From assembly GCF_053078305.1 (NCBI RefSeq), contig NZ_CP166879.1: a DNA stretch of 64,000 nucleotides; one strand, written 5' to 3'. The position numbers and the translations under genes were made by a program. The notes under the pieces are model-generated. The model was not told the origin of the DNA. It ran no database searches and saw nothing but the letters and a program-made list of their open reading frames with translations. Below are positions 12,795-33,057 of the stretch, piece by piece (the first letter of the stretch is position 1; each line of letters starts with the position of its first letter).

Positions 12795-12812
12795 TTATCT
12801 CGCCGAATACCG

Positions 12813-12925
<113 letters not shown>

Positions 12926-12992
12926 CAAACCTGCACGCTAGTTTCCTGATGGACATTTTTCCAGCAATTACACCTCCGGCGATAATTAACTA

Positions 12993-13020
12993 TTGACGAA
13001 AAGCTGAAAACCACTAGAAT
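12993..13020 (+). promoter_or_regulatory. sigma70 promoter of the tRNA-Leu operon (TTGACG-16 bp-TAGAAT, GC-rich discriminator)
   Basis: -35 TTGACG at 12993-12998, -10 TAGAAT at 13015-13020, followed by GCGCCTCC about 40 bp before the first tRNA. Confidence 0.45.
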
Positions 13021-13061
13021 GCGCCTCCGTGGTAGCAATTCTTTTTAAGAATTGATGGTAT

Positions 13062-13148
13062 GCGAAGGTGGCGGAATTGGTAGACGCGCTAGCTTCAGGT
13101 GTTAGTGTCCTTACGGACGTGGGGGTTCAAGTCCCCCCCCTCGCACCA
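13062..13148 (+). tRNA. leuV: tRNA-Leu (anticodon CAG)
   Basis: 87-nt sequence GCGAAGGTGGCGGAATTGGTAGACGCG...CCA with CTTCAGG anticodon loop; copy name assigned from K-12 order. Confidence 0.9.
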
Positions 13149-13176
13149 AAAACCACGTTGATATTGCTCGCACTGG

Positions 13177-13263
13177 GCGAAGGTGGCGGAATTGGTAGAC
13201 GCGCTAGCTTCAGGTGTTAGTGTTCTTACGGACGTGGGGGTTCAAGTCCCCCCCCTCGCACCA
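13177..13263 (+). tRNA. leuP: tRNA-Leu (anticodon CAG), variable-arm C-to-T variant
   Basis: Identical to flanking copies except GTGTTCTTACGG vs GTGTCCTTACGG. Confidence 0.9.
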
Positions 13264-13297
13264 AACGAGGCGATATCAAAAAAAGTAAGATGACTGT

Positions 13298-13384
13298 GCG
13301 AAGGTGGCGGAATTGGTAGACGCGCTAGCTTCAGGTGTTAGTGTCCTTACGGACGTGGGGGTTCAAGTCCCCCCCCTCGCACCA
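13298..13384 (+). tRNA. leuQ: tRNA-Leu (anticodon CAG)
   Basis: Third tandem copy, identical to the first. Confidence 0.9.
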
Positions 13385-13422
13385 ATTATCTTTACTTCCT
13401 TTCTTGTTTCTTCCCTGTTTTA

Positions 13423-13659
13423 TCATCCCTGATTCAAATTCATTATCATCAGCATGATGCCAGCAATAAGCGCCAGGCACGATGGTAGCAAAACGTAATG
13501 CCGCAACTGTTTGTGATACAGCATCATCGGCGTCAATACTAATCCCATCAGAATGATAATCCGCCATTGATCCGGCGATAAATCCGCATACATCAGCCCT
13601 GCAATCAGCAATCCCGGTAGCAACACTCCCCAGCCACTGCCCAGCGTACGTTGCAACAT
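13423..13659 (-). CDS. yjjZ: small inner-membrane protein (DUF1435)
   Basis: 78 aa from MLQRTLGSGWGVLLPGLL inside a 115-aa ORF. Confidence 0.8.
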   Translation of the reverse strand: MLQRTLGSGWGVLLPGLLIAGLMYADLSPDQWRIIILMGLVLTPMMLYHKQLRHYVLLPSCLALIAGIMLMIMNLNQG

Positions 13660-27818: not shown

Positions 27819-28045
27819 GGTTTCTCTTTCCTGTGGACCGATGCAAGATTTTCGGCCTGAAATGAGAAAACTTTATAGGTAGCGACTTGAAACTGGTTAA
27901 TTTTACCTCACTTTTTTAATTTTTGTTCAAAAATACAATAACCACTTATTGATACATTTTCTGTTCTTATTTTTTTCACACGAATTGTATCTATTTTGAA
28001 CGAAATATTTTATAGAGTGTGGAATTTTAAGAAAGGACATCTGAA

Positions 28046-28588
28046 ATGTTAAACCGTGACTTCGATCATCTCTCAACGCTATTACATCTCTTTTTTGAAC
28101 GTGAGGATATTTGCCAAAAGCTTAATATTATTGACCAAAACAATATCACCGGTTGGGAAGTGTGGTTCCAGGTAGAGTTTGCTAATATGCTCTGCTCAAC
28201 AGACCATGAATGGTGGCGTGAACAAGCACTTTCCTGTGATATGCGCAAAAAACCTGAGCGCCCGACACTACGCACAGATTTCTTACTACGTAAAAAAGGC
28301 TGGGCACAAGATAGCTATATCGCGCTTGAAATAAAACAAAACAGAGACGCGACCAGTTGTGTTAAAAATATGATCGCAGACTTAGAAAAAAGCGCAAAAA
28401 TAAAACGTTCCGAACTCGATTTACGCAGTTTCTGGACCTTGGGTATCACCCCTATGATAGACAGGGAAAGGCTGGACTCTCTCATCGATTGCTATTTAGA
28501 TGAGAAATTTTATCTTACTAAATCTCGTAAAAAACACGTTTTACTTAAAGAAATAAATAACACACCATATTGCTATATTGTTATTTAA
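28046..28588 (+). CDS. hypothetical protein (orphan, AT-rich; possible PD-(D/E)xK-like motif)
   Basis: 180-aa ORF with AAAGGA Shine-Dalgarno 7 nt upstream; low GC vs flanks; residues TDFLL...YIALEIK fit D-x18-E-x-K. Confidence 0.5.
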   Translation: MLNRDFDHLSTLLHLFFEREDICQKLNIIDQNNITGWEVWFQVEFANMLCSTDHEWWREQALSCDMRKKPERPTLRTDFLLRKKGWAQDSYIALEIKQNRDATSCVKNMIADLEKSAKIKRSELDLRSFWTLGITPMIDRERLDSLIDCYLDEKFYLTKSRKKHVLLKEINNTPYCYIVI

Positions 28589-28696
28589 TATTTATAGCAT
28601 GAATATAATTTTTAAATGAGTTACACAACCGAGGGCTAAAAATCGCTTCGGTTGTGATCATCATCACATAAATAACCTTCATAAACCTTGCTCAAA

Positions 28697-28745
28697 ACCG
28701 CTCAACCGCAAAACTGACCGCTTACGTCCCTAAAATAACCACTCA
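28697..28745 (+). promoter_or_regulatory. BtsR (YehT) binding site: direct repeats ACC(G/A)CT(C/T)A upstream of btsT
   Basis: ACCGCTCA (28697), ACCGCTTA (28717) and ACCACTCA (28738); last two separated by 13 bp as reported for the yjiY promoter. Confidence 0.5.
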
Positions 28746-28880
28746 GTTATTTACCTTACTTTACGCGCGCGTAACTCTGGCAGCATCACTGCAGGATAGC
28801 GGTCAATTTACCTCCTCAAACGCAACGCAAACCTAGAACGGCTTCGGCCAACTATTAATCAATACATGCCAGGTTTTACT

Positions 28881-31294: not shown

Positions 31295-32251
31295 ATGAAC
31301 CCGATTGCAGTAACCCTACTCACCGGTTTTTTAGGCGCGGGAAAAACCACCCTGCTGCGCCATATTCTTAACGAACAACACGGCTACAAGATTGCCGTGA
31401 TTGAAAACGAATTCGGCGAAGTCTCCGTTGATGATCAATTGATTGGCGACCGCGCCACGCAGATCAAAACGCTGACCAACGGCTGCATCTGCTGTTCGCG
31501 CTCCAACGAGCTGGAGGACGCGCTACTCGACCTGCTGGATAATCTCGACAAGGGCAATATTCAGTTCGATCGTCTGGTCATTGAATGCACCGGCATGGCC
31601 GATCCCGGCCCGATTATTCAGACCTTTTTCTCCCATGAGATTTTATGCCAGCGTTACCTGCTGGACGGCGTGATTGCGCTGGTGGATGCGGTACATGCCG
31701 ATGAGCAGATGAACCAGTTCACCATCGCCCAGTCCCAGGTTGGCTACGCCGACCGTATTCTGCTGACCAAAACCGACGTCGCAGGCGAAGCAGAAAAACT
31801 GCGCGAACGCCTGGCGCGCATCAACGCCCGTGCACCGGTCTACACCGTTACCCACGGCGACATCGACCTGGGCCTGCTGTTCAACACCAACGGTTTTATG
31901 CTGGAAGAAAACGTCGTCAGCACCAAACCGCGTTTCCACTTTATCGCGGATAAACAAAACGATATTTCGTCGATTGTGGTAGAACTGGATTACCCGGTAG
32001 ATATCAGCGAAGTTTCCCGCGTGATGGAAAACCTGCTGCTGGAATCGGCGGATAAACTGCTGCGTTACAAAGGGATGCTGTGGATTGACGGCGAACCTAA
32101 CCGCCTGCTGTTCCAGGGCGTCCAGCGCCTCTACAGCGCCGACTGGGACCGCCCGTGGGGCGATGAAAAACCGCATAGCACGATGGTGTTTATCGGGATT
32201 CAGTTGCCGGAGGAAGAGATTCGGGCGGCGTTTGCGGGGTTGAGGAAGTAA
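31295..32251 (+). CDS. yjiA: CobW/HypB/UreG-family metal-binding GTPase
   Basis: 318 aa from MNPIAVTLLTGFLGAGKTT (P-loop), CxCC motif. Confidence 0.9.
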   Translation: MNPIAVTLLTGFLGAGKTTLLRHILNEQHGYKIAVIENEFGEVSVDDQLIGDRATQIKTLTNGCICCSRSNELEDALLDLLDNLDKGNIQFDRLVIECTGMADPGPIIQTFFSHEILCQRYLLDGVIALVDAVHADEQMNQFTIAQSQVGYADRILLTKTDVAGEAEKLRERLARINARAPVYTVTHGDIDLGLLFNTNGFMLEENVVSTKPRFHFIADKQNDISSIVVELDYPVDISEVSRVMENLLLESADKLLRYKGMLWIDGEPNRLLFQGVQRLYSADWDRPWGDEKPHSTMVFIGIQLPEEEIRAAFAGLRK

Positions 32252-32284
32252 TTTTGGATGATGGCCGCCATGTGGCGGCCTGAA

Positions 32285-32587
32285 TTATTTTTTGTTCTGA
32301 TCGCGCAGCATCGCTTCACGTAAAATTGCGTTCAGGCGAGTTTGATAGCCTTTACCTGGTCGCTTCAACCATTCCATCACATCAGCATCAATACGCACCG
32401 AAGCCTGAGTTTTCAATGGCCGATAAAACTTACCACGTTCGGCGTTAGACCATTGCTCATCGCTGGAAGGTGGGATATCACTGTAATCAATATCTTCGTC
32501 GGATTTATTCGCCAGCGCCTTCAGTTCGGCCTCATGCTGCACATCGAGTGTAGAGGGTGCCCCTCGTTTATGTTTAACCATGCTCAT
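32285..32587 (-). CDS. BrnA-like antitoxin (DUF4415/CopG-like)
   Basis: About 100 aa from MSMVKHKRG; C-terminal RIDADVMEWLKRPGKGYQTRLNAILREAM; start overlaps the stop of the upstream toxin ORF. Confidence 0.65.
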   Translation of the reverse strand: MSMVKHKRGAPSTLDVQHEAELKALANKSDEDIDYSDIPPSSDEQWSNAERGKFYRPLKTQASVRIDADVMEWLKRPGKGYQTRLNAILREAMLRDQNKK

Positions 32588-32888
32588 AGCGACTCCTCTC
32601 TTTACGATCTGCTTTTCGTGCACTGATGATTCGAATAATTTCATTTCCGCTTTCGAAACGGATGGTATGCGCAACCAGAATAACCACGATACCGTGAACC
32701 AAGCCGATAGTCTGCCAGCGATACTCACCGTTTTCTATGCGATCTTGCTGTGACAAATGTTGTGGATCATCAAACACTAACACCGCATCTTCAAAGCGGA
32801 TGCCATGTTTCACCCGATTACTTTTGGCCTTGTTTGCATCCCATTCAAACTCCATTGGCATAGTTGCCATCCCTAATTGTATATACAA
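32574..32888 (-). CDS. BrnT-like toxin (DUF497, RelE/ParE superfamily ribonuclease)
   Basis: Motif EFEWDANKAKSNRVKHGIRFEDA...RIISARKADRKER typical of BrnT; several in-frame ATG starts (32888 to 32855). Confidence 0.65.
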   Translation of the reverse strand: MYIQLGMATMPMEFEWDANKAKSNRVKHGIRFEDAVLVFDDPQHLSQQDRIENGEYRWQTIGLVHGIVVILVAHTIRFESGNEIIRIISARKADRKERSRYEHG

Positions 32889-33057
32889 AAATGTATCTAC
32901 AATTATTCTGCAATTATAGCGTTGATGTTGGAAATAGCATCACGTTTTGGATAATCAACCATGAAATTGACAATGAGTAAGTTGGACTTGATTCATCCAA
33001 TAGAATTTCTCGCCTGACATGGCACACTAAACACCTCGCTGTCGTTAAGGGATTACC

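Follow-up and report, generated by a model that had tools for sequence, protein, structure and literature searches.

Escherichia coli makes part of its tRNA-Leu(CAG) from a tandem array of near-identical genes, and in the DNA considered here the middle gene of such an array differs from its neighbours by one base. We asked whether this base is an error in the sequence, a private mutation, a mark of a functionally distinct tRNA or a normal allele of the gene. The window, meaning the whole stretch of 64,000 nucleotides that was analysed, was compared with E. coli K-12, with complete E. coli genomes and with other Enterobacterales.

Identity of the array and place of the variant

ARAGORN found exactly three tRNA genes in the 64-kb window, all of them tRNA-Leu(CAG), on the + strand and 87 nt long. 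Each copy matches the Rfam tRNA model RF00005 with 48.5 bits (gathering score 29). Since these are three matches above a curated threshold, spaced 29-35 nt apart, chance is not in question. The initial annotation described the three copies as identical except for the middle one, and alignment bears this out: 86 columns are invariant and a single difference falls at gene position 48. The two strings that it quoted, GTGTTCTTACGG versus GTGTCCTTACGG, are a correct reading of the window, and the interval that it gave, 13177-13263, is exactly the middle gene. The features of the locus are as follows.

12993..13020, + strand: sigma-70 promoter-like site of leuQPV (TTGACG, 16-nt spacer, TAGAAT); consensus scan, 10/12 matches
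13062..13148, + strand: leuQ, tRNA-Leu(CAG), C at gene position 48; ARAGORN, Rfam, K-12 name for the promoter-proximal gene
13149..13176, + strand: leuQ-leuP spacer, 28 nt; sequence, K-12 alignment
13158..13170, + strand: 5' arm of a possible leader-trailer helix enclosing pre-leuP, TTGATATTGCTCG; spacer complementarity, alignment, RNAalifold
13177..13263, + strand: leuP, tRNA-Leu(CAG), T at gene position 48; ARAGORN, Rfam, 100% identity to K-12 leuP b4369
13222..13233, + strand: leuP variable-arm hairpin, stem 13222-13225 with 13230-13233, loop TTAC at 13226-13229; structure evaluation, RNAalifold
13224, + strand: variant nucleotide, T in leuP and C in leuQ and leuV, with its partner G at 13231 in the variable-arm stem; alignment
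13264..13297, + strand: leuP-leuV spacer, 34 nt; sequence, K-12 alignment
13266..13279, + strand: 3' arm of the possible leader-trailer helix, CGAGGCGATATCAA; spacer complementarity, alignment, RNAalifold
13298..13384, + strand: leuV, tRNA-Leu(CAG), C at gene position 48; ARAGORN, Rfam, K-12 annotation

The array is flanked by rsmC and yjjZ/fhuF, as in K-12 MG1655 (NC_000913.3), where leuQ, leuP and leuV (b4370, b4369 and b4368) lie between the same genes. Of 5426 complete E. coli genomes, 5420 match a 501-nt query over the array along at least 80% of the query, and the matched array is annotated in E. coli genomes as three tRNA-Leu genes adjoining yjjZ. The trailers after copies 1, 2 and 3 (CCAAAAACC, CCAAACGAG and CCAAUUAUC) agree with the leuQ, leuP and leuV trailers given by Mohanty and Kushner 2007 (PMC2190699). 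We identify the window as E. coli and the array as the leuQ-leuP-leuV operon. Its promoter-like site at 12993-13020 is the same in K-12 and is directly followed by a G+C-rich stretch, GCGCCTCC. The leuQPV transcript is known to be cut apart by RNase P, with no dependence on RNase E, and to end at a Rho-dependent terminator (PMC2190699; PMC7049720).

Several further features of the surroundings were recorded. An A+T-rich inverted repeat, CAATTCTT-TTT-AAGAATTG, lies at 13036-13054 in the 5' leader of the operon, just before leuQ, and is the same in K-12. REP-like palindromic repeats occupy the rsmC-leuQ intergenic region (window 12800-12930). K-12 and the window have 267 nt between rsmC and the first tRNA gene, but this distance varies by strain, with 290 nt for 25DN and 189 nt for O157:H7-type genomes. 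The closest genome at the tRNA locus, NZ_CP062811.1 (100% identity over the 501-nt query, window 12950-13450), is not collinear with the whole window, and its annotation was applied to window 1-27876. At window ~27876-28866 an ~11.5-kb hpa (4-hydroxyphenylacetate) cluster, present between tsr and btsT in NZ_CP062811.1, is missing; collinearity returns from btsT onward. The best-matching genome was that of strain D8, at 99.1% over window 39001-64000. Downstream of yjiA, the D8 genes encode a BrnT/BrnA toxin-antitoxin pair, a restriction endonuclease and a type I restriction-modification system (M, S, R), and symE comes next. This yjiA-symE gene set, which differs from the genes of NZ_CP062811.1 at the same place, is assumed by collinearity for window ~32250-41000, a segment mostly upstream of the matched 39001-64000.

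To place the variant we used a class II cloverleaf with the acceptor stem at 1-7/77-83, D stem at 10-12/24-26, anticodon stem at 28-32/40-44, variable-arm stem at 46-49/54-57 and T stem at 60-64/72-76. The variable-arm stem is our own assignment, while the other four stems were placed from the Rfam alignment. The variable region comprises 15 nt (linear 45-59) and forms a 4-bp stem, G46-C57, U47-A56, C/U48-G55 and C49-G54, closed by a UUAC loop. Nucleotide 48 thus stands opposite G55 and the pair is retained, in line with the earlier reading of the change as a C-G pair turned into a U·G wobble with the structure kept. RNAalifold predicted the same four pairs in 30 orthologous sequences, the variant pair being UG in 27 of them and CG in 3. 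All copies have the cloverleaf score, the anticodon (cag at position 35 by ARAGORN, in the 7-nt loop UUCAGGU) and the long variable stem-loop of a class II tRNA-Leu(CAG).

The cloverleaf was absent from the unconstrained minimum-energy folds of the bare sequence, for the C and T variants alike, and we therefore evaluated it explicitly. By nearest-neighbour evaluation the U·G pair costs ~2.9 kcal/mol, the cloverleaf having –30.0 kcal/mol with C and –27.1 kcal/mol with U; the values for the isolated variable-arm hairpin are –5.2 and –2.3 kcal/mol. When the unmodified sequence is folded, the arm has a predicted probability of 0.95 with C and 0.22 with U, values that carry little weight because neither variant's minimum-energy fold is the cloverleaf.

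Position 48 here is a linear gene position. By our own count it corresponds to about e12 in Sprinzl numbering, pairing with e22; Sprinzl 48, which forms the Levitt pair with A15, is the U at linear 59 and differs from the variant nucleotide. The leucine identity elements of E. coli, in Sprinzl numbering, are the discriminator A73, G18G19, and A15 with U48 (PMC9976931). All are present here by sequence (A at linear 84 before CCA, A15, G18 G19 and U59). According to the same review, neither the sequence nor the folding of the variable arm is read by E. coli LeuRS (PMC9976931).

A separate irregularity is common to all three copies: an A·C mismatch at acceptor pair 5:68 (linear 5:79; coordinates 13066/13140, 13181/13255 and 13302/13376), which Infernal flagged as non-canonical. 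In other Enterobacterales copies, of both C48 and T48 forms, this pair is G·U instead (A5G with C79T).

Position 48 in K-12 and other E. coli

The comparison with K-12 leuV, leuP and leuQ that the initial annotation proposed as a check settles the matter of reading accuracy: leuP of MG1655 has the same T. From the promoter to the end of leuV, both spacers and the T included, the operon in the window is that of K-12. Their leuP genes are 100% identical over 87 nt and have the same spacers, promoter region and neighbours, rsmC and yjjZ; a few bases differ upstream of the promoter and downstream of leuV. Compared with leuP, the other three genes for this tRNA (leuQ and leuV in the same operon, and leuT in the unlinked argX-hisR-leuT-proM operon) agree at 86 of 87 positions and have the same anticodon, but carry C at position 48, giving C-G where leuP gives U·G. 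The difference is already known and in print: leuP is reported to be one variable-arm nucleotide apart from the other E. coli tRNA-Leu(CAG) genes (PMC12472396), and a tRNA-seq preprint lists (leuP) separately from (leuQ leuT leuV) as distinct sequences (bioRxiv 10.1101/2020.02.21.958157). Expression of leuQ, leuP, leuV and leuT is reported to be similarly high (PMC8510543).

The exact 87-nt T form was found in 4536 of 5429 E. coli records; neither K-12 nor most E. coli carries C at position 48 of the middle copy. The C form was counted with a synthetic 88-mer consisting of the leuQ-leuP spacer and leuP positions 1-60 with C at position 48. At least 80% of this query was matched in 4976 E. coli records, and 561 matched at ≥99% identity, ~453 of these being perfect partial matches from collapsed arrays. 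By subtraction, ~108 genomes have a middle copy with C, a figure estimated from marginal counts rather than from a cross-tabulation. An upper bound of fewer than ~137 genomes comes from an evenly spaced listing of the rows, in which the first row alone was full-length and perfect. By the same estimate, C in the middle copy occurs in ~2-3% of the E. coli genomes that retain the leuQ-leuP junction, which is missing from ~453 of 5429 records. Among individual strains, O55:H7 RM12579 has three copies that all carry C (C-C-C; positions 173-495 of its locus), and strain 109 and O157:H7 Z1814 have a single tRNA-Leu(CAG) between rsmC and yjjZ (positions 701-787 and 701-786 of their respective loci).

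An error of sequencing, assembly or polishing as the source of the T in the window has next to no probability and is ruled out by the K-12 comparison together with the population counts: near-identical tandem repeats do trip assemblers and polishers, and some deposited genomes have evident faults here (84-86-nt copies, shortened C runs), but the same base stands in MG1655 leuP, which by itself excludes an error, in 4536 E. coli records, in the orthologous arrays of many genera and in print.

The shortened C runs are of some interest in themselves. Eight consecutive C residues, spanning the T stem and the acceptor strand, lie at 13248-13255 in leuP and likewise in the other two copies, and this run is shortened in several deposited assemblies (loci L003, L005 and L011), giving genes of 84-86 nt. 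In a mutation-accumulation study the eight-C run was the main tRNA-gene indel hotspot in mismatch-repair-defective E. coli (PMC8510543). The shortened copies may fit this reported hotspot, or may be homopolymer assembly errors.

The T form and the leuP spacers across Enterobacterales

When one genome per species was scanned for exact copies of the T-containing 43-mer, at least 120 loci were recovered from Enterobacterales. The matches listed include Escherichia albertii, E. whittamii, Citrobacter, Klebsiella, Raoultella, Enterobacter, Kosakonia and Salmonella enterica subsp. arizonae, as well as Pseudocitrobacter, Phytobacter, Trabulsiella, Lelliottia, Pantoea, Xenorhabdus, Photorhabdus, Proteus, Morganella and others. 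Since the 43-mer itself includes the T, every locus was selected for it, and these loci show the breadth of the T form and not how often it is retained. The arrangements assigned by ARAGORN among the matches listed are given below.

Arg-His-Leu(T)-Pro, the leuT-type operon (argX-hisR-leuT-proM): 36 loci
C-T-C: 31 loci
T-C: 18 loci
C-T: 9 loci
C-C-T, T-T-C and T-T arrays: a few

Of the 41 tandem arrays tabulated among the matches listed, 40 are flanked on at least one side as in E. coli, by rsmC upstream or by yjjZ (often with fhuF) downstream, and C-T-C arrays have spacers that can be aligned between genera. These flanks and alignable spacers make the middle T gene orthologous to E. coli leuP. 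The agreement in T, synteny and spacers extends to the middle genes of rsmC-yjjZ arrays in Citrobacter, Klebsiella, Raoultella, Kosakonia, S. enterica subsp. arizonae and E. albertii. The arrays of other genera differ from that of E. coli by spacer substitutions, and a few lineages have C-C-T or T-T-C. The order rsmC-[C,T,C]-yjjZ was found in at least 11 named genera of Enterobacteriaceae. The U·G form is old and dates back at least to the ancestor that these genera have in common.

The T is not confined to one place or one copy number. In many genera the copy at the leuT locus is of the T form too, which is not so in E. coli. O157:H7 has no T copy at this locus, E. coli has one in four, and Citrobacter sp. 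R56, Klebsiella oxytoca and Raoultella ornithinolytica have two, one per operon, with both loci among the matches listed. A T-copy number ranging from 0 to 2 argues against a special role that is critical in dosage.

The same distribution bears on the view that the T arose recently as a private mutation or marks the incipient decay of a redundant tRNA copy. The array is indeed redundant, and O157:H7-type strains manage with a single copy at the locus. However, the T is the majority state in E. coli, it is common to the orthologous gene of E. albertii, Citrobacter, Klebsiella, Raoultella, Kosakonia and S. enterica subsp. arizonae, and all other positions of leuP are intact, with the same 48.5 bits as in its neighbours. 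The spread across species and the E. coli counts rule this view out, and we assign it a negligible probability.

The spacers on the two sides of leuP were also found to be complementary to each other. The leuQ-leuP and leuP-leuV spacers can form 13 pairs, one of them U·G, with a single G left bulged. We examined the inner 11 pairs in an alignment of 30 distinct orthologous sequences. Standard pairs fill 96.6% of the cells; sliding the 3' partner by 1-3 columns lowers this to 26-45%, and none of 500 shuffles attained either the paired percentage or the covariation score of the real alignment. One pair occurs in three types (UG in 14 sequences, CG in 12, UA in 3), in two pairs both partners have changed, and nine pairs were predicted by RNAalifold unprompted. 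Kosakonia oryzendophytica is without the helix. The covariation support is modest, as the aligned sequences are closely related, and the duplex energy of –15.4 kcal/mol is unremarkable alone, being attained by 20 of 1000 shuffled trailers. A description of such a helix was not found in the literature searched, although it may still be described. Speculatively, the helix would enclose pre-leuP within the primary transcript and might affect the order of RNase P cleavage.

Standing of the leuP allele

The middle gene is leuP: this is established by the sequence itself, by its identity with K-12, by how frequent it is among E. coli genomes and by the orthologous place that it takes in other genera. 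We hold with high confidence that its T is the normal allele, an old and tolerated copy variant that is probably near-neutral. As the literature describes the pathway, leuQPV would be transcribed from one promoter into a tricistronic precursor, from which RNase P would cut three tRNA-Leu(CAG) molecules. The products of leuQ, leuV and leuT would then carry C-G in the variable-arm stem, and that of leuP U·G. Because U·G keeps the helix and LeuRS ignores the variable arm, the leuP product is expected to be charged and to decode CUG like its siblings. The T also moves between paralogues, or is lost, through gene conversion or tandem-array collapse, without obvious harm. Functional equivalence and near-neutrality are thus what we infer for the leuP T. 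Against neutrality stands the ~2.9 kcal/mol cost of U·G in the nearest-neighbour model, and the long persistence of C-T-C across genera could also reflect selection for the U form.

The alternative that survives best takes this last point further, making the U form a functionally distinct tRNA-Leu(CAG) under selection, which might differ in stability or turnover, precursor processing order, modification or tRNA fragments. The C-T-C order in orthologous arrays of at least 11 named genera agrees with it, as does the rarity of a middle C (~2-3%) in E. coli genomes that retain the leuQ-leuP junction. In addition, both C and T forms occur on two acceptor-stem backgrounds, A5·C79 in Enterobacteriaceae-type copies and G5·U79 in others, which means that the acceptor stem changed in all paralogues while the C/T difference lasted. 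Yet T copies vary freely from 0 to 2 per genome, the position of the T shifts by lineage (C-C-T, T-C, C-T, T-T-C, or leuT), O157:H7 is a successful lineage although its locus is devoid of T copies, and the variable arm is ignored by the synthetase. The identity of the copies is explained, with no need of a special role, by strong purifying selection on each of them together with one tolerated site, and the cross-species loci had been chosen for containing the T. On balance we consider a distinct, selected function unlikely. It is similarly improbable, in our estimation, that the U·G form has been kept by selection across Enterobacterales, perhaps through a different stability, processing kinetics or fragment output, an effect that could be linked to the spacer helix bracketing leuP.

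Taking the T as the normal, near-neutral allele of leuP, the difference itself matters little, being the reference sequence of a well-studied E. coli gene. For tRNA-seq and variant-calling pipelines, leuP is to be treated as a separate sequence and not as an error. The C/T site is a handy natural marker for gene conversion and collapse in leuQPV, as in the C-C-C array of O55:H7 and the single copy of O157:H7. The persistence of C-T-C across genera and the possible helix around leuP are modest leads on the processing of polycistronic tRNA precursors.
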